A DNA stretch of 63,127 bases, filler included, from Basidioascus undulatus (lineage: Eukaryota), in NCBI GenBank assembly GCA_000826855.1. It is 5 parts of 5 records of this genome, joined end to end, with 100 filler letters (N's around TTAATTAATTAA, not from the genome) between each part and the next. Parts side by side here need not be neighbours in the genome. Positions count along the whole stretch, not along the records: positions 25,311 to 37,853 come from JTLS01000895.1; 4 more parts are not named here. One strand, 5' to 3'. Numbering within the stretch: the stretch's first letter is position 1; each line of letters starts with the position of its first letter. A model generated the notes under the pieces. It was not told where the DNA came from. It was given only the letters and a program-made list of their open reading frames with translations, and searched no databases. A program made the translations under genes and the position numbers. This document shows, in pieces, positions 8,351 through 63,127 of this stretch.

Positions 8351-8442
8351 CGACCAGAGCAGGATTTGAACCTACGCGGGCAGAGCCCATGAGATATCAA
8401 CGATATTCGAGTCTCACGCCTTAACCGCTCGGCCATCTGGTC
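8351..8442 (-). tRNA. tRNA-Ser(CGA) with 10-nt intron
   Basis: GACCAGA/TCTGGTC acceptor stem, D arm GCCGAGCGGTTAAGGC, anticodon stem TGAGA/TCTCA with CT-CGA-A, intron TATCGTTGAT after position 37, long variable arm, GGTTCAAATCC T loop, and a T6 terminator just downstream. Confidence 0.95.
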
Positions 8443-9256
8443 CTGTGAGACACAGCTCGCGTGAAAACTAGCTACTGAGACAGGGCATTGTGAAACTTCC
8501 CTGCGCCCTCAGGTTGGGGAGCTTCAATATGTCGCTCGCCCTAAAAAATATCCTCCAGACCGGTATATCGCACAGTCTTTCATTATTTCCGACTCACTTT
8601 GATAAGCTCTTTCATGCCAATAGGGACCTATAACGCATCTCGCACTGTCAACATTGCATAGAGACCGCAAGGTGTACGCTGCTATTGTAATCTGTAGCTC
8701 CTGATTCTATGCTTGATACCAAAGGGTTCTGAGGTGGCTTCAAGTCCAGGATCTGGGAGGCTAGCTACCGTGGCCACCGGCAGGCTGCTAGACTGCTACA
8801 CAGCGCTGAAGGCTCCCACCACAGCAGAAAGAGCGAGAAAGGGCCGTCTGGTCTTGTTCAATGCTTACGTCAAGAGGAGGACCCCTGCATCCCCCACCTA
8901 TCGTGAGAGCTGTGTTCCTAAGTGCATTCCTTCCCCCCGGACGTATTCTTGCATCCGCCCAACGGACTGGCCACTGCCTACCAACAATAAAAGTTGAAAT
9001 CGGAATCGCTCGGGAAGATCAAGTCCAAACCAACCCTTCCACTTCAAAGTCTGCTGTTTCCGTGTGGCCGTCCGAATAGTTCGCACATCGGCCTACCTAA
9101 GTCTGTACATCCGCCTACTTAAGTCTGTGGGGCGATGCTTCCCTTCGACCACAACAACTATCATCTCCATTTGACAGGATAACGCGCATAAGAAACAACT
9201 TGCTCCCTCTCGCCTCTATCCAATCTACCTCGTCCTACAACCGCCCAGTCGCTGTG

Positions 9257-12560: not shown

Positions 12561-12660
12561 NNNNNNNNNNNNNNNNNNNNNNNNNNNNNNNNNNNNNNNN
12601 NNNNTTAATTAATTAANNNNNNNNNNNNNNNNNNNNNNNNNNNNNNNNNNNNNNNNNNNN
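12561..12660. other. artificial contig linker
   Basis: N44-TTAATTAATTAA-N44, with stops in all six frames. Confidence 0.99.
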
Positions 12661-14940
12661 TGACAGTTGTCAGGAATCGGACTGGGTAGGGTATTCATGA
12701 CAGTGTCTCAGCCACAGCTGTCATTTATGTGTCACTTATGTAAAAAAATTAAGGGACATAAAAATGTCCTTAAGGGACATAAGCTTAAGGACATAAGTGA
12801 CAGTGCTAGTAGCACCATCCAGACATGATATAAGTAGCTTTCAGGGAGCTGTCCAACATGTCATCCCACCTGTCAGGCAGGTGGTCCAACATTAGGTCCA
12901 ACATGTCAGAGGGGCATCCAACATTGAGTCCAACATGTCAGCCAGCCATCCAAGATTGAATCCAACATGTCAGAGGCGTGTTCAACATGTCACACAACAT
13001 GTTGTCCAACATGTCAAGCAAGTGGTCCAACATGTCACACAACATGTTGTCCAACATGTCAAGCAAGTGGTCCAACATTTGGTCCAACATATCAACAGGC
13101 AATCTAACATGTTGGACTAACATGTTGGACTGTTGTCCAACACGTTAGGGGGTGGTTTCAACATGCATTCAACATGCTGTCTAACATCTCAAGGGTTCAT
13201 CCATACATGTTGTTCATTGTTCAACAGTGAAGTTAAGCTAATCCTCATATTTAATGTCAATGAAATCCAGCAAAACCTCAGGAAAATCCAATGAACCTGA
13301 ATCCTGACCAGCTGAACCTCACCTTTTTTTTTTAGTTGAACCTGGCTACTATTCAGCTGAACTTTCATTCATTCATCTGAACCTATACCATTCAGTTGAG
13401 CCTGGGATGTGGGCACAGATATCAGCACTGAGATGGACAGATGAGGGTATACATGAATGTCCTGCAAAACATGGACAAGGAAGTAAACATGGACATGTAT
13501 GTTGACACAGATATTTGCATTTGCATGGCCACAAACATGGACACTGGTATGATGAGTATGGACACACAGACATTGACCCAAGGATTAGTTTAATTTGGGA
13601 TGAATAGGCATACTCCTAACAATCAATCAGTGGCCTTTCAGTGAATGTCCTTTGGCAGAAAGGGCTTACACTCACAGTCCTTGACAGACATACATTGCAG
13701 TGACAATCTTTTGGCAGACAGTCCTTATAAGGACTGTCCTTTACCAAGGAGTCAGTCCTTGCACAGGCCTTTGGCAGACTGCGACTTTCCATGCAGTAAA
13801 TGTTATTGAGCAGACTGTCTTTCAAGGGCCTCTCCTTGTCAAAGTGGGCCATGCAGTGATTGCTCTTCAGAAGACAGCCTTTGCAATGGGTGACCTTCAG
13901 CTGACTATCCTTCAGCAGACTATCCTTCCCCTGACTGCATTGAGCAGACAATCAGACTGGCCTTCTGTTACTACCCTTAAGCAGCACAGTGAGAGCTGTT
14001 CACCAGACAGTTATTTCAGTAAAAGTCCTGCTGTGAACAGTATCTTCCAGGGACAATGTTCAAGCACACACGGTCATTTGCACTTCAGCAGACAGATCTG
14101 ATAGTGAATGTTCTTTAGAGGATGATAAGACAGGGTTTTCATGGCTTCCATTCAGTAGACATATATATACAGAAGGTCTTCTCAGTGATTGTCTCTTAGG
14201 GGACTGCCATTGAGCAGATAGTCAGACAGGCATTCCAATCACTGTCTTCAAGTACTGTGCTTTCAATTACTGTGCTTTCATTGGCAGTCTTTTCAATCAC
14301 TGTAATTTTAGTGACTGTTCCTTTGTAGACAGTTCTTCCATTGACTATCCCTTAGTGTACTGTTTGCATTCCCTTAGTGGCATTTTCAGTGGACTGTCAT
14401 TGAAGGAACATTGTATCCTTCTGGTGTCTCTCTGTGCAATGAATGCCTGTCCTTTGTGATGTCTGTCCTGAAAGAGACTGCACTTCAGCATCCACTGTCA
14501 GGAAGGAGAGTGTCCCCTAGAGCAGACTGTCCTTAAGCAGACAGTGAGGCAGGTGTCCTATAAATGACTATCCTTTTAGGCATGTCCCTCCAGGAGACTG
14601 TCCTTGGACAAACTGTCAGGCAGTTGCTATTTTGAAGTGCACTTTCCTGCAGCATGAGCCTACACAGTCAGTTCAGATGAACCAGGTTTGGCCCAGCTGC
14701 ACTGGAGCCCAGCCCAGCTGAAACTGTTGATTTTTGCTGAATGACAAAGTGGTTAGCTAAACATGAGCAGATTGAGCTGAATCTGCCTTGCACTCAGCTG
14801 GTCCCTGCCTTTCAGCTGAGCTGTAATGTGTTCAGCTGAACCCAGGGCAAATTCAGCTGAACCTGGGTTTATTTCAGCTGAACCTTGCATTTCTGGGTGC
14901 AGTTGAGCTGAATCTGGGTTGTCAATGACCATTACACTTT
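12661..14940. mobile_element. CpG-depleted island of nested short-repeat arrays, probably eroded non-autonomous DNA transposons/MITEs
   Basis: About six CpG counted by eye in 12661-15300. Distinct motif arrays: GGACATAA, TCCAACATGT, TTCAGCTGAAC, ACATGGAC and CAGACTGTCCTT. CAC...GTG-like termini. No transposase ORF. Confidence 0.55.
12850..13200. repeat. TCCAACATG(T) array including a perfect 45-bp tandem duplication
   Basis: Many copies of TCCAACATG. CAACATGTCACACAACATGTTGTCCAACATGTCAAGCAAGTGGTC occurs at 12983-13027 and 13028-13072. Inverted copies CATGTTGGAC lie near 13108-13130. Confidence 0.9.
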
Positions 14941-25210: not shown

Positions 25211-25310
25211 NNNNNNNNNNNNNNNNNNNNNNNNNNNNNNNNNNNNNNNNNNNNTTAATTAATTAANNNNNNNNNNNNNNNNNNNNNNNNNNNNNNNNNN
25301 NNNNNNNNNN
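25211..25310. other. artificial contig linker
   Basis: N44-TTAATTAATTAA-N44. Confidence 0.99.
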
Positions 25311-26552: not shown

Positions 26553-29500
26553 ATGGACATCGACACGAATACCCCTGTCTACCCGACGCCGTCCAAGCGT
26601 CCGCTCTTCTTTGGTTCAGACGACGAGCCATCCGACACCGAGGACGCGCCCCCCACCGTCGCCGACGCGTCCACATCCACGCCCGCTCCCGCTCCCAAGC
26701 GCAGACCATCGCCCGTCTCCGCGCCCTCCAACACCCACACCTCTTACTGCCCGCCCCTCAAGAAGCCCAAGATAGAGGCGTCCACGTCTTCCCCCCCGCG
26801 CACATCCCCCACCCCTGCCGAAGGGACGGGAGCGCCCACCTTCGAGCACCGATATATCGGCGACCTCGTCCTCGCGGGATGGAGCACCGTCAAGGGCAGC
26901 GGGTACGTCAAAGACGGGGAAAGGATCGTCATTGAGCGGAAGAAGCCCGTGGAGGAGAAGGTCAAGATGAAGACGGTCAGGAAGGAGGTCAAGGTGAAGG
27001 CCACGGGCAAGGGCAAGAACAAGGTGAGTCTCGCATGCCGGGTGGGCGAGGAGGGTGTTGGGGCACATGGAGACTGACGTGCCTGGATGGGTGTGTAGCA
27101 ACAGGCCACTACAAAGACGGTCACCACCACCGTGCCTGTCGCCCCCAAGAAGAAGGGCGAGGACACCGTCATCCGGTGCGCCGCTGCGTCCACGTCCTCT
27201 CCCATCCCACCTTCTTACACCCCCTCCCTCTCCCCATCCAGCTTCCTAAACACCCGCGGCTTTGAAGTCGGCCGCCTCCCCACCTCGCACGCATCCTACC
27301 TCTCCAAGCTGCTCGACCACGACGTGCGCCTCATCCCTCCCCAATCCCCCTTCCCCCCGCTCACCCTCCACCCCCCACCCCGACCCAGATCATCCACCTC
27401 GCCGGGCACGTCGTCGCAGTCTCCCTGCCCCTCCGCTCAGGGGACGACATCTACCTCTCCCTGCGCGTCTCCCTGCGCTCCTCCGCGTTCCTCGCCTCCC
27501 CCGCCGCCGGCAAGAAGAAGGCGCAGACCGGCTTCGCCCCGGACGCGGGCAAGGAGACCGCGCAGGAGAAGGTCCTCGGCGAGCGCAAGGCCGCGCTGCT
27601 CAGGCTCTTCAAGGACGTAGGCATCAAGCCCGTCCGGAGTAGCGCGGTCGTGCAGATGCACAAGGACAAGGGCGCGCTCGAGAAAGGAGGGGCGGATTTG
27701 CAGCTGGACCATTACGCCGTGCGCCACTTTCTTTTTACTGCCTACCCGTCTCCTTCCACCCGCTCCACTCCTGCGGCATAGGTTTGCTGACTTTGCTGCC
27801 TGAGGTCACAGGACGCCGCCAAAGCGCTCGGGAAATCGTGCACGTCCGCGTCCGCCTCCTCTTCCCGCAAACCGTCCGCCTCTCGCTCGCGCGGCTCCTC
27901 AGCAGGCCCGATCGAGCTCGGCTCGTCCGACGACGAGGCGTCCCCCTCCGCCGCCGCCGCGCGACCCAAGGGCAAGGGCAAGGCGGCGGCGGTCAAGGTC
28001 GAGGATGGGGAGGAGGAGGAGGGCCAGGAGCTCTCGGACGACCAGCTGCAGCTCGTGTACCGCAAGGCGCAGGCGAACGACCGCGCGCTTGGCGAGCTCG
28101 AGCCGCCTGACTCGTTTAGGCTCAAGCTGAGGCGTTATCAGAAGCAGGCGCTCAAGTGCGTGGCTCTCTTCTGCTTCGCGGGATGTGGTATGGAGCTCTG
28201 CGTCTTTTGCTGATGTGCATAGGGGCTGTGTGCGGACGCAGGTGGATGGCCGCTATGGAGCTCGGGGAGACGGACGCGAGGGACCAGAGCATGCACCCGC
28301 TTTGGGAGGCGTGCGTACCCTTTTCTTCCTTCTCTCCCGCTCTCCCCGTACAACCGACATGAGAACCTCCATTCACTCTTCGCCAGGTATGAGTTCCCAC
28401 TGCTCCCCGACGCTGCCGAACTCGACGCCGACTACAGGACGTTCTACTTCAACCCGTACTGTGCGTCCACCAAGTCCCACTCTTCGCACCGCGCCGAGGC
28501 TGAAACAAGCGATGGGATGGGATGCTGCACAGCCGGCGAACTCTCGCTTGACTTCCCTAAGGCGAGCAAGAAGTGTCGCGGGGGGATTCAGGGGGACGAG
28601 ATGGGGATGGGCAGTGCGTCTCTCGCGTCCTTCCTCACTCTCAACTCCTGCCCCGCTGCTTGCTGATTGTTGTGTAAACTGCGCAGAAACGATCATGATG
28701 GCCGCCCTGATCCACACGAACCGCGTCGCCTCCTCCGCTGCGGACGAGCCCTCGTCCTCCTCTCCCGACCCGGACGCGTCCTCCGACGTCGAGATCCTTC
28801 CCACCTTGCCAGGGAAGAAGCGCGTCAAAGCCGCGCCTCTTTCCGACTCGGACGATGACTGGACGCCAGCGCGGAGCAAGCCTCGGCAGCTCAAGCTCGA
28901 CGCCGCGTTCCGGCCCGTCGCCTCCTCCCGGCCGCTCGCGCGCCCGGCGAAGAAGCTGCTGCCCCCCACGCGCAGGCTCGACAGCGCGACCCTCGTCATC
29001 GCGCCGATGAGCTTGCTCGGCCAGTGGCGCGACGAGCTCCTCCGCAGCGGCCGAAAGGGCAGCCTCAACGTCCTCGTCTACTACGGCGCGGAGCGCGTGG
29101 ACTTGGACGCTGCGCTCGGGGGGGCGGAGGAGGACGCGGAGGAGGATGCGGAGGAAAGGGCCGTGGACGTCGTTATTACTAGCTATGGGACGCTGCTGAG
29201 CGAGTATGGGCGGTGGGAGCGCGCGGTCGCGGGCGGGAAGGAGGACGGGCCGACGCTGTTCGATTGTGAGTCGCCGCGACGTCTTCCGTTACGCCTCCCG
29301 CGTTGGACCAGCACCGACTGAGGGACACGCGGAGCAGTCTACTGGCACCGCTGCGTGCTCGACGAGGCGCACCACATCAAGACACGCACGACGCAGAATG
29401 CGAAGGTGCGGCTTGCAACTGTCTTTTTGGTGCACGTGGGTCCGGTGGGAGGCTTCGGAACTGATGGGGAGGCGCGGGCAGGCGTGCTATGCGATCAAGG

Positions 29501-32190
29501 CGCACAGGAGGTGGGCGCTGACCGGTACGTTTTGCGCTGCTGGAACTGGGAAAATTGGTTGCTGAGGGAGGGATATTGCGCACAGGCACGCCGATCGTCA
29601 ACCGCTTGGAGGACCTCTACAGTCTCTGTACGTTTCAGCTTGCGCTTGTCTGTGGGCCCTGGACGCTTTGCGCTGACCAGCCGAGTTGGCAGTGTTCGTT
29701 CACTTTCGCGCTGTGGGATGGAAAAGGAAATGGCTGGCGTAGGTTGGCAGAAACTGACATGCGGACCCATAGACACTTCCTCCGCATCGAGCCGTGGGGC
29801 AACTTCTCGTTCTTCCGAAGGTGCGTGTGCTTCCAGCTGGTGTCTAGCTAAGGTTTGAAGCACTGACTCTGGAGGATCGGCGGCACAGCTTTATCACAAT
29901 CCCGTTCCAGAACAAGGACCCGAAAGCCGTGGATATCGTGCAGGTACGGGTTCCCGCAAGGCGAGTGCGTGCTGAAGGTCTGTGTGGTGGCTGACGTCTT
30001 TGGACCGTTGACCAGGTCGTGCTCGAGAGCTGCTTGATTCGCCGCGAGAAGAAGATGAAGGATGCGGACGGGAAGTCGATTGTGGAGCTGCCACCGAAGC
30101 ATGTGCGTTCATTCCGTCGTGTCCGTTGTTCTGAGGAAAGAGAAGACGAACGCTGACAGTTCAATGTAGCTGCATGTCGAGCACCTCGAGTTCGCCCCCG
30201 AGGAGCGCCAGATCTACAAGGCCATCTTCAACAAGGCGAAGCGCAAGTTCGACGCGCTCGCGGCGGCGGGGTTAGCGCTGAAGAACTTTACGAACATCTT
30301 CGTGCGTCAGATTTGACGAGACCGCATCGCTCCGATGTTGATGCTCATGGATTCTCCTTCCGCAGGCGATGCTGCTTCGGTGGGGCCGTTCACTACATCT
30401 AGTGTCGCCGTGCCTAGCTGACCGTGCGCACCTCTCCCGCAGTCTTCGCCAAGCTGTCCTGCACCCCTTCCTGGTGACGACCAAGAAGAAGGCGCTCAAC
30501 ACACGCAGCGCGACGGCGGACGGCGGCGACCCCGAGGCGGACTTCGTGCTCGACGAAGACGACGACCCGGCGGGCGTCGACGTTCAGAAGCTCATCGCGC
30601 GCTTTGCGACGGGGGAGGAGGTCGGCGACGCGGACGCGGTGTTTGCTACACAGGTCCTGCAGAAGATCGTCAATGGCGATGAGGACGACGAGGAGTGCCC
30701 GGTACATTCTCGAGGGTGGGAATGCTTCAAGGGAACAGCAGCTGACGGGAAAGTGGACGGCTGCAGATCTGCATGGAGACGCCGATGGAGAACCCCGTCT
30801 TGCTGCCCTGCATGCACCACACGTGAGCATTCCTTTCTGTTGCGGAAGTACTTCTACCGTCGCTGAGGTCTTCCTCCCTCCACCCGCAGGTGCAAGGGCT
30901 GCGTGCTCGAGTACTTCGACAGGCAAGAGGGGAAGGGCGAGGAGCCGTCCTGCCCGGTGTGCCGCAAGGGTCCCGTTCAGGGCGACCAGCTGCTCGAGAT
31001 CGTGCACAAGAAGAAGCCCGCGCAGACGCAAAGCGCGGACGACGGGAACGTCGACATGCCGGACGTGCCGAGCTCGTCGCCCGCTGTGCGGCTCCGCAAG
31101 AACAAGAATTTCCGCTCGTCGACAAAGCTGGACGCCCTCGCGGTGCACCTCAGTCGTCTGAGGGACGAGGACCCCGAGTTCAAGGCGGTCGTATTCTCGC
31201 AGGTGCGCGCGAAGACTCAATTCCGTCGGCTCTCCCTCAAGCTGACCATGTCTATGCGCTCGCAGTTCACCTCCTTCCTCGGTATGTACAATCACACTAC
31301 CTCTAGCACGTTCCGACGCGCTCACATCTTCACTCACCGCACCGGCGCAGACCTCATCGAGAAGACGCTCTACCGCGAGCGCATCGCGTTTGTCCGCCTC
31401 GACGGCTCGGTCAGCCAGAAGCAGCGCGAGGCGGTACTGAAAGAGTTCGAAAACGCAACCGAGGGCTGCGTCATGCTCATCTCGCTTCGCGCGGGCGGGG
31501 TTGGACTCAACCTGGTGCGTTTTCAGAGGTGCCCGCAGTGTTCCCCCGATATGTGGTCGAGGCTGATGCGTATTTTTGTTGGTGGGCAGACTTCGGCGAA
31601 TCACGTCTTCATGGTATGCGGTCACAAAGTATCGAATTGGACTTGGAACTAACTATGCCGCTGTTCAGATGGACTGCTGGTGGAACGAAGCAGTCGAGAG
31701 CCGTGCGTTCTTCTATCCTACCCATCTTCACTCTTCTGTCTTGATTATTTTAAGCTTATGTTTGCTTGTTCTGCAGAGGCCATTGACCGGATCCACAGGC
31801 GAGTTTTGTCGGCCCTTCGCAGCAGCCAAAGCAGTCGCTAAATTTTGTCTTCGTTGATCACAGAATCGGCCAGCAGCGCGAGGTGCACGTTACGCGGTTC
31901 ATCATCAACGAGACCATCGAAGACCGCATTGTAGGCAAGGTTTCTTTGCAGCCACGTTCATCAATTTGTCGTATGCTAACGAGAGTTTCGTGATACATAC
32001 AGCTGCAAATCCAGAAGCGCAAGACGGCGCTGGTCATGGGCGCGCTCGGAGGGACGTCGAGGGAGGAGGACAGGCAGCAGACGCTTGAGGTGCGGCCTTT
32101 CCGCTGCGCCGAGGTGATGGAAGATGGCTCGGGTGCTGACTGGTCCTTCTCCCGGGCGCGCAGAACCTGCAACTCATGTTCTCCAAGTAG
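26553..32190 (+). CDS. RAD5: DNA repair helicase/E3 ligase Rad5 (HIRAN + SNF2 ATPase + RING), about 28 introns
   Basis: HIRAN ([21 protein letters not shown]), [117 protein letters not shown]. Confidence 0.96.
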
Positions 32191-35311: not shown

Positions 35312-37076
35312 TCAGACCGACTGCGCGACCTGGTTGGCGGGAGGCGACTGATGTTGTTGGGCGGCGCTGGTGACGTCAAGGCGGCCAAGTCAGCGTCTTT
35401 GGGACTGCGCGGGTCAATGAGAACAGCAACACACTTTTTCCGCTTGCTCTTGTGCATCTCCTTCTTCAACGCCGCTCCATCTAACGGCTTCAACAGCTCG
35501 AACGCGCAAAGCAGATCCTCCGACACCGACATGACTGCGAAAGAGAAAAGTCAGCGACCAGCCTCATTCGACATGAGATCAGGCTCGAGAACAATACGCA
35601 CTCGCTCCGAAGTTGTCGAATTCTGGAGGCGACACGAAGATCAGTATTAGGAATGGACTGGAGATGGTGGATCGTAACGGACCTCCGCAATAATTCGGCG
35701 CGCTGAACACCGTCACCAGCGTGCGGTCGTTCCAGAACTCGTATCCACTGTCGCACCATAGCGTACGTCAGCCTCTTTACGTCTCCCCTGCCCTTTGCGC
35801 CGTGCCCCCCGCCCTTCCCCGTGCCCAAGAAAGGAAGGACGCACTCCTCCACAACCATGTGCGCCCGACAGATGAGGTCGAACTCGTAGCGGCCCAAAAA
35901 GTCGTTGATGACGGCCTTGCCGAAGCAGTAGCTCACGCCGCGCTCGTTGTCCTCCCAGTCGAGCGCGGTGTCGCTCGGATCGGACCAGAGGAGGTCGTTG
36001 AGGAGGCCGTAGTCGGGCACGTCCGTCGGGCGCTGGATGCGCCGGATGTCGTCCATCGAGCTCAGGCTTGGGCTCAGCCCGCCGTGCACGCAGAAGATCT
36101 TGGAAGCGACGACGGCGGCGATGGGGAGGCAGTTGAAGACGTCGATGAAGATCTTCCAGATCTTGACGTTGCACCGTCGTTTGCACTCGTCGTAGAAGCC
36201 GTACACTGCGTGAGGGGGGACGAAGGCTCAGCTCGTTGCACAGAGACCATGGGAAAGCAGCGGAAGAAAACAGGGGTTAGACGCACCTCGCGTGACGTTT
36301 GCGGACTCGTGGTTGCCGCGGAGGAGGAAGAAGTTTTCGGGATACTTGATCTTGTAGCAGAGGAGGAGGAGGATGGTCTCGAGACTCTGCTTGCCGCGGT
36401 CGACGTAGTCGCCGAGAAAGAGGTAGTTGGCCGCGGGTGGGAAGCCACACATCTCGAAGAGGCGGATGAGGTCCGAGTACTGGCCGTGCACGTCGCCGAC
36501 GATCTTGACGGGCGGGCTGAGCTCGACGAGCGTCGGCTGCGAGAGGAAGAGCTCGCGCGCGACGTGGCAGATGGCGGTGATTTCCGCATTCTTGAGGCAC
36601 ACCGACTTTGTCACCTTGCCCGTGTAGCCCGCGTCGAGCAGGCGCTGGATCATGTCGTCGATGTCGAGCGCGTCCCCGCCCGAGACGCTCGGCGGTGGTT
36701 GTACGGAGACGGGGGATGCGGGGGAGAGAGACGCGAGCGGGTTGGAGAGGATCGTGTTTTTGTTGGTGGGGATGGGTGACGAGCCGGGCGCAGGGATGGA
36801 GGAAGCGGAGGTGGACGGGGAGGCGGCAGTGGGTTCGGAGGGTCCGAAGGAGGAGAGGTCGGTGGTTTGGATTGAGGGGACGGAGGCGTTGGACGCGTCG
36901 CGGCCGTTGCCGGACGGGCCCTCGCCGTTGTGCACGGGCTCCTTGCCCTTGCCGCGCAGACTGCTCTTGCTCGGTGCATCGCGCAGCGTCTTTTCAGCGC
37001 CGTCGGCGGGGGACTCGTCCGTGGACGCGTCCTTCTTGGACTTGGCCCCTTTGCCCTTGGAGGGCGTCGAGCCCAT
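35312..37076 (-). CDS. PPZ1: PPZ-type (PP1-related) Ser/Thr protein phosphatase
   Basis: Myristoylation-like MGSTPSK, Ser/Pro-rich N-terminus, [62 protein letters not shown], end [11 protein letters not shown]. Confidence 0.94.
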
Positions 37077-37853
37077 GGCCCGGCCGAAGAAGGATGAGAA
37101 GGACGGAATGGTGGGCGGCGGTGGGGGGTGTGACGGGAGCTGGTGCGACGATGGAGATGGAGATGAGCTGGAGCTGTCAGCATACGACCATGAAGTAGAG
37201 CTTCGGTGAGATGTGAAGCGAGGGTGTGAAGTGGAAAGGCAAGAGCGCTCCTATCGGGGAGAATGCCGCCTGGGATGATGTTCCTCCCAGACATGTTTTC
37301 CCCATTCCAAATGACGACCAGGCACCCAATCCATCATCACCATCATCATCCAGCGCCACGACCGCAGCAGGCGAGCTGCGTCCGCAATGGGAAGCCGGTT
37401 GTAGGTCGAGCGTGAGACTCACGTGAACGATTCGCTGCCGACTAGCGCGGGACGGCTCGAGGGTGCGAAGAGGGTGGGCGCGAGCCGTGGGTCGAGGGGA
37501 GGGAGACAAGAATATCCGGGCCTGGGGAGGGAAGGCGAGGAGAGTGGGAATGAGTGTGAGTGTGTGGTTGAGAAGTAGGCGGGTGGTGCAATGGGCGTCG
37601 AGGCGATCAGCAGACCGGGCGCGAGTGGGACGGCCGGACGCTCAGCTCGGACGCCTTGTTTGTGAGACAGTGTACGCTTCAAGACCAACAGTATAGCCTT
37701 GGATGGAGCTGAGGAGGTGAGAGGGAATACTCACCAGCGTGGGCGTGCGCGAAGAAGGAGGGTCGAAGCGGGGAGCACGGAGGCAACGCGCACGCGTCCG
37801 GGCTGAGGTCCGCGGCGGGATCCGGGGCTGAAGAGAGCGAGCTCGGTTGGTCC

Positions 37854-37953
37854 NNNNNNNNNNNNNNNNNNNNNNNNNNNNNNNNNNNNNNNNNNNNTTA
37901 ATTAATTAANNNNNNNNNNNNNNNNNNNNNNNNNNNNNNNNNNNNNNNNNNNN
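37854..37953. other. artificial contig linker
   Basis: N44-TTAATTAATTAA-N44. Confidence 0.99.
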
Positions 37954-45475: not shown

Positions 45476-46503
45476 ATGCCCTCTTCGACCTTCACCTCAC
45501 TGCCATGGTCCTGACCCTTATACTCGATGAGATCCCTTCGATCGAAACGTGCACCGCCCTCTCGCAAACATGCACCAAGCTGAGAAGCATTTGCAACGAG
45601 GCGTTCCTGTCCCGCCGCCTCCATCGTCTCGGACTCGGCGCACCAATCGCGTCCGGGGACGATATCGACGTATGCAAGGGCGTGCGCGCTGCGGTGGCGA
45701 GACTTGGTCGGACCAAATGCGGGGGTGTTCTTGCGTGCCAGTTCTGTAGCCACGAAGGTCACGTACGTCCTCGGCCGTCTCTACAGTGCTAACACACCCT
45801 TTTGAAAGTGTACAAAAAGTAGAGCATTCCAATCGCTCTGCCCCGCTGCTTCCCGCCCCTCGCGTGGCGGGAGAGAACCCCTCGCTCGACCTGCACCGCA
45901 TCCTCCGCGACGAGATCTGGGTTCCGTTCGACCGCGCCCCGATAAAGCTGCAGTGCTCCCTCGCCTACCAGTGCGACTCCTGCGGCGGGTATCACGACAA
46001 CGCAGCGTTCCTCTACGAGTCCCCGCGGACGAGCCTCCTCGACCATCTTCCGCTCGCTATGGCCTTCGCGACCGCCCCGCCGGTGACGAAACTCGAGATC
46101 CAGGTCATGTCTGAGCGGATAGGCGTAAGATGGACATGGTCTCTGCGGAACGCGACGGGTGTGACGGTGCTGGATCTGTGTAAAGCCGCTCAATCCATGT
46201 ACGCGCGCTCCGTTGCGGGTCCTTGACGCATCCGTAGTGATTGCGGCTGATATCGCCACCCTTCTCAGGCTCAAGGTCCCGCTCACTTCCGAGGAACTTT
46301 TTAAGCTGGAAGATTCGCTCGCTTGGGCCGGTCTCCCTTCGCGCACTCGGCGGTCGTACGTCTTCGAGGAAGGGTGAGTCCGTCGTAGTGTGTTGTCACG
46401 GAACCGCCGCACCGACTGAACTTTACCCGCCTGCAGGTGTGGGATCGGGTTCAACATCACCACTCGGGGATCGGGGGCGGAGATGCGCTGGACTTCGTGT
46501 TGA
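45476..46503 (+). pseudogene. F-box-like + DUF6699-like protein with a frameshift inside the F-box motif
   Basis: MPSSTFTSLP switches frame to VLTLILDEIP..ALSQTCTKLRSIC. Later FATAPPVTKLEI..W..RNATGVTVLDLCKA resembles basidiomycete DUF6699. It could still be expressed from the downstream ATG. Confidence 0.5.
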
Positions 46504-47420
46504 TGAGGTGCATGGATGAGTTCCTCGGTAGCGTTGGGCTGCCTTCTGAATGCATCGCATGCGAGATTGGAAGTTTACCACGGCGGCCACCTGCAGGCCA
46601 GCAGGGTTGGGCTTCGCCTTAGCTTGAATGACATAGAAGAAAGTGCAATGTTGCTGGGTACCCCACGTAAGCTGCTCACTGCACAGTCTGGCCCGAGACG
46701 GTTCACAGCATCTTTCCGAACTCATGTGAAACCGCCGAGGAATTCCAGTTCGAATCCGGCGAGCTTGCACCGCTGGATGTGCAAGTCGTCTTTCTACTAC
46801 TCGCCCGATGACGGTTAGGATGCTCTCATGACCATGCAAGTCAGAGTGGGGCTCGCCGCTTCAGCAGGTCGGGCGAATGGCCCAAGTTCAACACGAGACG
46901 GTAGTTAAAGGAAAAGCGCCTCCGATGGCCGCCGTGCGAATGCATGGAGCTGAGGTTTGACTTCCTCATCGAGCCTGAGCAAGCCGGGCGGCCCACAATC
47001 GCACTCTCCTCGCGTGCTTGGTCGCTTTTCTCCATGATATGATATCGACGGGCACGCTATCTGCGGTCAGGTTCGGGGAGGGATTCAGCGTGGATTGTGA
47101 GGGACTGTCGACCAGAGCGGAGGGGTCGCGCGAACGATCCGCCCGAAAAGAACACCCCGTCTCTGCAGAAGAACGTCTTTTCAGTCGCATTACAATCGAG
47201 TCAACGATTCAGCGGGGGTGATTGGTTTGAGCGACGGTGAGTGCGAGCAATGGCTGTCGCCCCGATCGGAGAGAAGGTTCGATCGAGGTGGACGGCGGGC
47301 GTTAGCAAATCCAGGCGTGTTCCGTTGATCTCCCACCAAAACGTAGTAGTGTTCGGTTTTCGGCGTTTTATTTTCCTCCTCCTCGCCTCTTCCATCCCCT
47401 CTACGACCTGCGTCCGACAT

Positions 47421-50494: not shown

Positions 50495-50594
50495 NNNNNN
50501 NNNNNNNNNNNNNNNNNNNNNNNNNNNNNNNNNNNNNNTTAATTAATTAANNNNNNNNNNNNNNNNNNNNNNNNNNNNNNNNNNNNNNNNNNNN
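50495..50594. other. artificial contig linker
   Basis: N44-TTAATTAATTAA-N44. Confidence 0.99.
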
Positions 50595-52564: not shown

Positions 52565-54335
52565 TCAAAGCCTCGAACGGCATTCCACCAAGTTCTGGAG
52601 TAGTGCATTATCTTGATTCCTTCCACTGCTCCAAAAGGCCTGGTGTGGCTCGTCGCGCGAGCGTCTGTTACATTCACGAAGCTCGTGCACAAACGTCTCA
52701 GCGTTGGCTGTCCCTACGCGCTTTAGGCTCTTGAAATTCCTCAAAAATTTCATTGAAAAGGTATGCACTGAAGCCGTGCAGCCGGAAGCCGGCCGGTCGC
52801 AGTAATCTGTTCTTGTTCGCCCAAGTCTTCATTGAGATACTCGAAATTGCCTTCAGTCTGCCAAACAATGTCGAGCGAAGCCGACGCATCACCGCCCACA
52901 CTTAGCCACCGCTTCAAAAGTTTGACCAGTAAATAAGGTGACATCGAGCTTACCAAGGTAATCTGGTGATCAACTTCGAAGCGAGCAGTTGTAGCAACAT
53001 CATCAAGGATGAACTTGGGGTTTCCCGCAGCCATGCTGGTTTGAAAGACAGGACCCCCGAAGACTTGAGAGCCAGCGAGGTATACGAGGGTTAGAGCGGA
53101 ATAAGCATAGTGCGATTAACAGACTTCTCCTACCATTCAGAAAAGCAGGACTGACAATAGCAAAAAGGGGTCAGAAATTATCACTCGTCTTCAGCATTCG
53201 TCCGACCAACAGTGCAAAGAGCGGGTCATAACCCCTGTTCTCCTTGAACGCCTCAAGGAATCCAGTGCTCTGAAGCCGAAGCATAGAGAGGAGCACCGTT
53301 AACACTGGGATATTCGTGCAGTATGAGCTTAGGTTCAATTGGCTTTCCCAGAAAATGCTTGAAGGCGACACGAGGAACTCCTGGCTGTCCTCCCAGATGT
53401 ACAAGCTGACTCCCTGCTGCTGCAGCACCTTCAAATAACAAGAAATAGGGGTCAGTGCCAGGAAGAGGAACTTTTAATGAAGGAAATATATGTCACACCT
53501 CCAGAGTACCATTCGCCAGGATGAACTTCTAGACGGCCGAAGTCGATCCCTCTGCACCAACAACCGAGAAGTGGTCGACAGCCCAAGAACCCCATGACCC
53601 GGGCTTGTCCACGACACCGCCATCGAAGCCCTGCGCGGCCTGGAGATGTCCTGTCCCACGCTGGTAGAAGGCAAACAGGACGGTTCGTGTCCCGACGAGG
53701 GGGCTTCGTACAGCACGCTACCGGCGGTGAAGTTGCTCGTCAGGTCGACCATCGACGAGTAGTCGAGAACAGTAGAATCTGGCGGAGTGGACGAGTCTGA
53801 CGCAGGTTCAGCAGAAGGGACGTTGATCTCGGAAAACACTCACAACAGCATATCTGATATGTTGAGTCCGGTTATGACAGCGACGAGGGTGGCGTCATTG
53901 CTCGGGAATATGCTGTCTTCTTTTTCTGAGCCCGCCGTCACCGCCGTAACTGTGGGAGGTGACAATGAGCTAAGATTCTGCGCACATCCTGAAAAGGCAT
54001 AACCGAACTCATATTCCCTCTGGTAGGCGAGAAACTCGAACCCGCCGGTGCCAGAGCTCGCCATCTGTTGGATGTCGAGCTCGACAAACGCCGGACCCAC
54101 GCTGGGAGAGAGAGGTACGGCAGGTCACCGTCAGAAGGGGCTACCAGTGTGGAGCGGCAGAGTATGTAGCAACGGGACAACTTCGCCTCAACGTACTATC
54201 CATCTTGAACGCAATAACGCCATTTTACGACGAACGTCTCTTACGGAAAGTGACATAGTCCCAGTCGGAAGACGCGTGTTCCGACCGCACGAACGCGAGG
54301 ACGGAGGCGGTGAAGGCGAAGAGCGCAAGTTTCAT
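52565..54335 (-). pseudogene. large putative secreted protein, pseudogene
   Basis: Signal-peptide-like MKLALFAFTASVLAFVRS. Collinear ORF blocks are broken by in-frame TGA (53840-53842, 53171-53173) and by frame changes near the 3' end. No family recognised. Confidence 0.5.
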
Positions 54336-62139: not shown

Positions 62140-63127
62140 GGTGCGAGGTGATTGGTTCAAGGTGAGCTTGAGGGCGGCCGGATCCAGAGTTGACAATGGG
62201 TGATGGTGGTGGTGAATGACGAAAGGCCAGGCAGCACACGCGGGGTTTTGGGTCTCATGCGTCATGCATTCCGCACGCCCTCCGTCGTCGTCGCCTGGGC
62301 TGGGATTTCAGAAAAGGCTCACGTAGCTCCTCAATCTCAGATAATATGAGCCCCAACAAACAGCTACTCCCGCATAAGAGCGGCACTGGTTTGTAATGGG
62401 CAATGAAAACCGTTGCCAAGGGGTTTTCAATGCTTTTTAGAACACAAACTCCTGACATGGTGACTCCGAAGATATCCCCACTGTCTATGATCCCCCGGCT
62501 GTTCTCAACATTGCGTGCGAAGTGAGTCCGTAGTGAAAGCCCTGGACTCACTGCATTGAAAGCCGGGTGGTACTACTTTATCTTTCCTGTCGAAAGAACT
62601 GTTGAGGCCTGATTTTTCACGGTTGATTACCACATCAAAGCAGGCGATCGAAGGTCTTCAGTCAGCTCTATACTAACGGTCGCTTCGGCTAAATTTGGGA
62701 CTGTGCGGGCATTGGATTTCGGAAACTTCCAGAAATATCTCAGTGGACAAGTAGAGAGTAATTACATCAATCGAATGACTAGAATTACTGTACCATTGCG
62801 ATATATCACAACTTGTCACGGTCACACTGGGCGGTTGTGTTGTAAAGGTCATGCGTCACAGGAGGTCAGTTGTAATCGTGAGCTGGAACTTGAGAAAGCA
62901 CTGTGACGAGGTACTGAGGCACTGGCTAACATAGCATACACACTATATGTGCACAAAATGACTTCCAGCCGTTAATACAGCAATATTTTCCATGTCCAAT
63001 GTCAACCTCAGAGCTGACATTGCTGGGTCTCCTGCAGAGCCAGGCAGCCTGCGCAACTTCCCCTCCGCAGCAGCGTCCCACTTATAGTTGTGTCTGTCAC
63101 GGATCTTACTGGACCTGTTGTAAAGTT

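Follow-up and report, generated by a model that had tools for sequence, protein, structure and literature searches.

A probable one-nucleotide exon between two ordinary introns in a RAD5-type gene of the fungus Basidioascus undulatus

Exons of a single nucleotide have been described in plants and in fungi. In Arabidopsis thaliana, APC11 contains a constitutive 1-nt exon, as was proven by mutagenesis (Guo and Liu 2015, PMC4674806), and plant surveys have reported microexons of 1-15 nt. The CYP621A gene of Fusarium comprises a one-nucleotide exon that its authors regard as the second known case and as the first from a fungus (Nelson and Syed 2026, PMC12940212), and the 2025 long-read annotation of Coprinopsis cinerea comprises 13 exons of 1 nt (in 13 genes), 57 exons of 2 nt and 27 exons of 3 nt (PMC12230235). 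Stwintrons are nested introns that leave nothing behind, the canonical external intron being formed only after excision of the internal one (PMC5587772). Here, we analyse a stretch of 63,127 nucleotides, filler included, from Basidioascus undulatus (GCA_000826855.1), hereafter the window, in which a RAD5/HLTF-type gene located on JTLS01000895.1 most probably carries an exon consisting of one T, at position 29693. An earlier examination of the DNA without database searches (the sequence-only reading) had proposed this exon and had described 1-nt exons as reported only very rarely, for example in APC11; the existence of such reports stands, but their rarity is out of date in view of the Fusarium gene and of the 13 C. 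cinerea genes. No title on a one-base exon or microexon in RAD5 was present among the matches listed for the literature on one-nucleotide exons and on RAD5/HLTF microexons, and the terms "RAD5", "SNF2" and "1 nt" were not found in five supplementary files of the C. cinerea annotation (PMC12230235); there is weak evidence that the RAD5 case is unpublished.

The gene model was built from splice signals, from tblastn comparisons with four named RAD5 homologues and from the joints of a sequencing run, X3, which is described below. The region 29300-30100 was read letter by letter on the plus strand, with positions counted along the whole stretch. The features of the gene and of the site are as follows.

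26553..32190, plus strand: coding part of the RAD5/HLTF-type gene, 29 exons, 28 introns, 1219 codons and a TAG stop
29586..29627, plus strand: exon 12, 42 nt, (G) and 13 residues plus the first T of the Leu752 codon, supported by X3 joints 29523>29585 and 29627>29773
29628..29692, plus strand: intron A, 65 nt, phase 1, GTACGT...GCTGACC...CAG, assigned from its splice signals
29693, plus strand: highly probable one-nucleotide exon, T, middle base of TTA = Leu752, assigned from the X3 contig letter T, the flanks and the homologues
29694..29772, plus strand: intron B, 79 nt, phase 2, GTTCGT...ACTGACA...TAG, assigned from its splice signals
29773..29820, plus strand: exon 14, 48 nt, the A of the Leu codon, 15 residues and the AG of a Ser codon, supported by X3 joints 29627>29773 and 29818>29887

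Re-reading of the sequence reproduced the coordinates and letters that had been given for both introns and for the lone T. Exon 12 ends with ...GAC CTC TAC AGT CTC T at 29627, and exon 14 starts with A CAC TTC CTC CGC. Between them lie 145 nt including the T, 144 nt of which are intron. The T is immediately preceded by the AG of intron A and immediately followed by the GT of intron B (CAG-T-GTTCGT, 29690-29699), so that the codon of Leu752 is split T/T/A over three exons within the conserved SNF2 segment DLYSL-L-HFL. The CTGAC branch motif of intron A occupies 29673-29677 and places the branch A (29676) 16 nt before the 3' end of the intron; that of intron B occupies 29754-29758, its branch A (29757) lying 15 nt before the 3' end. 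Each of the two introns thus has a donor, a branch site and an acceptor of its own together with a normal length, while without the base between them the frame is shifted and a conserved residue is lost, and exactly one base is found at this place in a spliced contig.

That contig comes from one of three sequencing runs, X1, X2 and X3, which were aligned on 26553-32100 and none of which is recorded as RNA. X3 bears the record label "DNA?" and derives from the same sample as X1; it was called cDNA-like because its contigs omit GT..AG introns that are kept by X1 and X2. Its depth is uneven from piece to piece, and it shows at least 17 of the 28 introns of the model, either as joints or as rows with letters between two joined sides. 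X3 behaves as a transcriptome (cDNA)-like data set of the sample of X1. Its record 20 (509 nt, depth 5.07) shows the joints 29265>29338, 29403>29480, 29523>29585, 29627>29773 and 29818>29887. At 29627>29773, where 145 positions are skipped, one letter, T, stands between the two sides, giving AGTCTCT-T-ACACTTCC. The mature junction predicted by the sequence-only reading, AGTCTCTTACACTTCC, is therefore present in a spliced contig, and with exactly one T in that contig the proposed distribution of the Leu codon over three exons is borne out as well. The X3 depths of 1.48 over 29513-29697 and of 1.26 over 29698-29882 equal 5.07 x 54/185 and 5.07 x 46/185, respectively; as record 20 fully explains them, no further X3 contig, such as an intron-retaining one, lies at the site. 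The T-skipped junction, AGTCTCTACACTTCC, was not found among the X3 joints listed, and no intron-retaining contig over A and B was seen among the X3 contigs aligned, so that neither of the products named beforehand as speaking against the exon, a T-less cDNA or retention as the main product, appears there.

The two other runs, which come from two studies dated 2025 (X1) and 2014 (X2), represent the genomic DNA. One X1 contig spans all of 26553-32100 with no other letters and no gaps relative to the genomic sequence, and X2 contigs span 26553-28935 and 28957-32100, also with no other letters and no gaps. An assembly indel at the outer junctions, the remaining source of error considered in the sequence-only reading, is very unlikely, since X1 and X2 are both identical to the sequence and only one of them could be the source of the assembly. 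Elsewhere in the gene, GAG/GAA-rich (Glu/Asp-coding) low-complexity stretches occur at 27961-28022 (exon 5) and 29118-29155 (exon 9); they cross-match each other and other loci, and in the DNA runs this results in false joints and in loose ends.

The X3 transcript contig with its T is what settles the question of the one-base exon, and we consider it highly probable that the T at 29693 forms a constitutive exon by itself in a RAD5-type gene, located between two ordinary spliceosomal introns. The consequences for the reading frame are as follows. When the T is removed together with both introns, the frame shifts and a TGA is reached after residue 792, in agreement with the early TGA announced for removal as one intron; this stop lies in exon 16, 40 codons on, and 13 introns are located further downstream. 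Retention of intron A alone leads to a stop after residue 814 and retention of intron B alone to a stop after residue 767. Retention of both introns keeps the frame and adds 48 residues in a segment where homologues tolerate no indel.

The constraint on the protein was examined with a homologue set of 114 matches among 7998 candidate proteins, with a best identity of 43-55% over parts of one exon and no closer relative among the matches. All 114 homologues are aligned over the site, and the position of Leu752 is occupied by V in 74, L in 36, I in 2, F in 1 and a gap in 1, so that 113 of the 114 exhibit V, L, I or F. Three of the 114 are exceptions with regard to length, being predicted proteins that lack 16, 16 and 26 residues beside the site; these deletions look like gene-model errors. 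Two of them, the Termitomyces RAD5 models P0004 and P0017, lack exactly the 16 residues matching exon 14, with DLYSLL/F joined to FITLPF, and P0043 lacks 26 residues at the same place. The gaps of all three are probably annotation errors around short exons. The homologue alignment shows that exactly one hydrophobic residue is required at this position, and only a T between the two exon ends supplies one: in the codon T?A, a T in the middle gives Leu, a C gives Ser, and an A or a G gives a stop. TTA accounts for 2 of the 111 Leu codons of the gene, whose GC content at third codon positions is 88%, which suggests that the letters of this codon are set by the splice sites or by their history and not by codon preference.

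The gene itself is assigned, on the basis of its predicted protein, to the RAD5/HLTF subfamily of SNF2 ATPases, whose members have a HIRAN domain followed by a split SNF2 ATPase with a RING finger located before the Helicase_C lobe. Residues 2-1219 of the model align with Basidiomycota RAD5 proteins at 41-44% identity. Exon-wise Pfam matches were obtained for SNF2-rel_dom (E 1.5e-10) and Helicase_C (E 1.9e-7), the match to HIRAN is weak (a fragment, E 5.9e-4, below cut-off), and a C3HC4 RING pattern, ECPICME...CMHHTCKGC...CPVC, is readable in the model.

With regard to the origin of the T, all layouts of the cDNA on the genome were enumerated over 29628-29772. This stretch contains 37 T's, and only the one at 29693 is preceded by AG and followed by GT or GC, from which it is inferred that the T of the transcript derives from 29693. 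The sequence-only reading had likewise seen no alternative canonical donor or acceptor that repairs the frame. Three other arrangements were considered and rejected. A single intron does not account for the contig, as no single cut reproduces the cDNA. A stwintron does not fit either, as neither intron interrupts the signals of the other and no nested solution yields the cDNA; the base before the first GT (29627) is a T and not a G, so the earlier rejection of a [D1,2] stwintron holds. A recursive splice site, or zero-length exon, is incompatible with the one base that is located between AG and GT and that is kept in the cDNA-like contig.

The splice signals were compared with those of the other introns of the gene. 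The intron lengths range from 55 to 93 nt with a median of 70.5, so 65 nt for A and 79 nt for B are typical, and the branch sites of the other introns are located 11-29 nt before the end. The donors of the 26 other introns follow GT-G/A-C-G-T, with G at +3 in 20, A in 6 and T in none, and CAG is the acceptor of all but one of them, which has TAG. The donor (GTACGT), the branch and the acceptor (CAG) of intron A match this consensus, and a complete CTGAC branch motif is found at a normal distance in both A and B. In 100,000 simulations of 145-nt introns, a signal-complete split with halves of at least 45 nt occurred in 0.65%, and in 0.21% with a T kept.

Several observations weigh against a one-nucleotide exon at 29693 and have to be set beside the evidence presented above. 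Intron B has a T at position +3 of its donor, which is the case for none of the 26 others, and a TAG acceptor, which is found in one of the 26. A loose scan for YAG-N(1-3)-donor, together with flanking splice signals, on both strands of the window returned 7 sites, compared with a mean of 4.55 in 20 simulated sequences; the bare sequence pattern alone is no rarer than chance. The assignment of the T to 29693 depends on its being the sole canonical solution. The transcript support consists of one assembled contig, with a depth of about 5, from one run, and that run is labelled "DNA?", its cDNA status being judged only by the introns it skips. Finally, contigs drop rare variants, so minor T-skipped or retained forms may go unseen.

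The further sites returned by the loose scan include 46437-46686 and 52643-52781 on the plus strand and 8885-9030, 13544-13669 and 62300-62449 on the minus strand. The three other sites of the plus strand were inspected, and they exhibit stops in all three frames or a non-coding appearance.

A splicing mechanism compatible with this layout can be proposed. The introns would be recognised, rather than the exons (intron definition), as the introns of the gene are 55-93 nt long and exons as short as 14 nt occur elsewhere in it; under intron definition, no particular exon length would be needed. Only 1 nt separates the branch site and acceptor of intron A (29673-29692) from the donor of intron B, so the complexes assembled on them would overlap. 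As two spliceosomes cannot sit there together, the geometry indicates that A and B are removed one after the other, which makes the obligatory sequential splicing suggested in the sequence-only reading a reasonable proposal. Either order would be chemically possible, the donor of B being complete both before and after the removal of A. Removal of A first appears somewhat likelier, since A precedes B in transcription and its donor and acceptor are closer to the consensus. If the donor of A were joined directly to the acceptor of B, the T would be lost and a stop would follow 40 codons later.

The sequence-only reading had also suggested a splicing-controlled on/off switch for Rad5, a speculative idea. 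In that case the exon would be real and would serve as a regulated switch, in which inclusion or skipping of the T toggles between a productive and a frameshifted RAD5 message, the latter probably being degraded by nonsense-mediated decay. A stop located upstream of later introns is the typical set-up for nonsense-mediated decay, and the stop reached upon T skipping (after residue 792, in exon 16) lies upstream of 13 further introns. The signals of intron B look weaker than the consensus and would leave room for splice-site competition. Against such a switch, no T-skipped joint is present among the X3 joints listed, the four other tiny exons of the gene look plainly constitutive, and the published one-base exons are described as constitutive (PMC4674806, PMC12940212). 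Regulation of this kind is considered unlikely.

Retention of all 145 nt in a functional protein with a 48-residue insert is a less probable explanation still, and we regard it as very unlikely. Its support is the stop-free frame across the stretch, a point on which the sequence-only reading was right, although the 144 nt it gave for the retained stretch is the size of the introns only and the T brings it to 145 nt. However, when intron-like sequences of the same composition are simulated, about 24% of them are open over 49 codons (probability ~0.24), so the open frame carries no weight as a sign of coding sequence. In 111 of the 114 homologues there is no indel within 8 residues of the site, and the 48 inserted residues would be Cys- and Trp-rich, with no counterpart in homologues. 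In addition, the X3 contig is spliced and accounts for the X3 depth over both introns.

It is most improbable that the T of the transcript comes from elsewhere, be it as an assembly artefact, as a non-templated or edited base, or by a non-canonical splice at another T. There are 36 other T's in the stretch and the aligner reported the T as a letter between the two sides, without placing it, which leaves room for such an origin. Nevertheless, none of these 36 is preceded by AG and followed by GT or GC, we know of no insertional editing in fungal nuclear mRNAs, and an artefact would have to restore, by coincidence, exactly the frame as well as a conserved hydrophobic residue. A single 145-nt intron in a gene that is frameshifted here, as a pseudogene or through an assembly indel, is equally implausible: the outer GT and AG (29628-29772) by themselves form a legal intron, but the extra T of the cDNA-like contig contradicts it, no indel is found in two DNA runs from two studies, the rest of the reading frame, of 1219 codons in all, is unbroken and can be aligned over its full length with RAD5 proteins, and an intron of 145 nt is far beyond the 55-93 nt range of the gene, in which it would be the longest by 52 nt.

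The one-nucleotide exon, which remains the strongly preferred reading, is not the only very short exon of the gene, whose exon lengths include 1, 14, 16, 22, 24, 34, 42, 43 and 48 nt. Four tiny exons (14, 16, 24 and 22 nt), each bordered by introns of 55-75 nt, and one unusual intron are located downstream of the site. Letters between the two sides are found at three other joint pairs of X3 (12, 15 and 17 letters), which were placed as the exons of 14, 16 and 22 nt, allowing for bases that fit either side.

30366..30379, plus strand: 14-nt exon (AMLL-R), X3 letters between 30302 and 30442
31266..31281, plus strand: 16-nt exon (FTSFL-D), X3 joint 31202>31350 with 15 letters between
31590..31613, plus strand: 24-nt exon (TSANHVFM), X3 joints 31513>31589 and 31612>31668
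31777..31798, plus strand: 22-nt exon (Q-AIDRIH-R), X3 joint 31702>31859 with 17 letters between
31799..31863, plus strand: GC-AG intron 26 (GCGAGT...CACAG, 65 nt), from the model and an X3 joint, adjoining the 22-nt exon on its 3' side

All introns of the gene other than intron 26 have a GT donor. The one-base exon is the extreme of a local habit of tiny exons in this gene.

In order to place introns A and B in an evolutionary context, a metagenome scan was carried out with an alignment of 18 basidiomycete RAD5 proteins. It matched 584 stretches, 442 of which encode relatives, and the best 80 were examined. The motif region is uninterrupted by an intron in 79 of these 80 loci, most of which are nearly intron-free and ascomycete-like, with 35-41% identity. 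The only informative relative among the best 80 is L078, an intron-rich locus with 46% GC that is approximately 40-45% identical to Agaricales RAD5. At 8380-8760, L078 reads ...GAT CTT TTT TCG CTT CT|gtgagt...cctag|T AAA TTT TTG..., so that the corresponding Leu codon holds one phase-2 intron, positionally equivalent to intron B. It shares with the B. undulatus gene the positions of introns 14 and 16 and has no introns at the positions of intron 11, A and 15. This one relative gives a hint that B may be old and that A may have arisen beside it. The skip of 16 residues in the Termitomyces models is indirectly consistent with introns of the same phase on both sides of the corresponding exon in those genes.

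Two sources of the introns were considered and are not supported. With regard to a tandem duplication, A and B share, by eye, GTTGGCAG and CTGTGGG, but their local alignment score ranks 51st among 378 intron pairs of the gene and is reached by 150 of 2000 shuffles. As for introner-like copies, blastn-short of A, of B and of A+T+B against the window returned only chance matches of at most 13 nt.

A more elaborate scenario can be formulated, in which A is a lineage-specific newcomer 1 base upstream of an ancestral phase-2 intron B, inclusion of the T is the outcome of a kinetic race of the acceptor of A against the branch and acceptor of B, and the output of RAD5 is tunable through a decay-prone T-skipped message, for example under replication stress. 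Taken as a whole, this scenario is speculative and has little probability.

Two further observations concern the rest of the window. A putative PP1/PPZ-type Ser/Thr phosphatase core, with GDVHGQ...GDYVDRG...RGNHE and a Ser/Pro-rich N-terminal extension, can be read in an open reading frame on the minus strand at 36228-37250. Runs of 44 N, paired 12 bases apart, are found at 12561-12660, 25211-25310, 37854-37953 and 50495-50594 (352 N in total); with their spacing of approximately 12,650 bases, these pairs look like masking or scaffolding and not like biology.

A constitutive one-nucleotide exon at 29693 would matter for annotation. As exons of 1 nt lie outside what standard gene finders can model, RAD5 would be reported as frameshifted, truncated or with a false 48-residue insert; RAD5 is a conserved DNA-damage-tolerance gene, and two public Termitomyces models already lack the neighbouring 16-residue exon. 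As a further transcript-supported case, the locus indicates that an intron-definition spliceosome needs no exon sequence between two introns. The compact pair of introns of 65 and 79 nt is a possible test system for the order of removal, which was left open by the published cases.

At a ratchet point of recursive splicing, AG abuts GT, no base is kept, and the upstream exon reconstitutes the donor. The B. undulatus site differs in that the donor of B is complete before and after the removal of A and in that one base is kept. It resembles ratchet-point splicing in that a donor lies almost directly behind an acceptor, one region acting as a 3' and then as a 5' site. Recursive splicing of this kind is mentioned in the discussion of the APC11 paper (PMC4674806). 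The stwintrons of Pezizomycotina, of the [D1,2] and [D1,2]/[A2,3] types, likewise comprise two U2-type introns that are removed consecutively from one short stretch (PMC5587772); in contrast to them, the two introns here leave each other's signals intact, and the mRNA retains one base.

Among the described one-base exons, that of APC11 is similar in being constitutive, in standing between AG and GT, in being needed for the frame and in having been missed by annotation, and its authors likewise argue for intron definition and for the removal of the introns one after the other (PMC4674806). It differs in belonging to a plant, in that the kept base is an A, and in its asymmetric position within the old 422-nt "intron", 333 nt of which lie upstream. 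Moreover, the origin of its base was proven by substitution and deletion in reporters (PMC4674806), whereas the origin from 29693 is here deduced from the flanking splice signals. The exon of CYP621A is fungal, as is the present one, and its kept base is also the middle of a codon in a conserved motif, in that case a Gly codon; its composite "intron" of 139 nt is about twice the median intron length, public transcript reads support it, and the gene models are wrong (PMC12940212). In contrast, CYP621A is an ascomycete gene encoding a P450, and the G kept in AG-G-GT fits both splice consensuses, whereas here a T is kept; the CYP621A exon is conserved in 20-24 orthologues. The origin proposed for it is the rescue of a 1-nt exon deletion (PMC12940212), whereas the comparison with L078 is a first hint that one-base exons can arise when a second intron appears beside an older one. 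In C. cinerea, a basidiomycete, introns are short, as in the RAD5 gene, ultra-short internal exons are normal, and their omission breaks the frame (PMC12230235). One-base exons are thus already known, including in fungi, and the RAD5 case adds one more.

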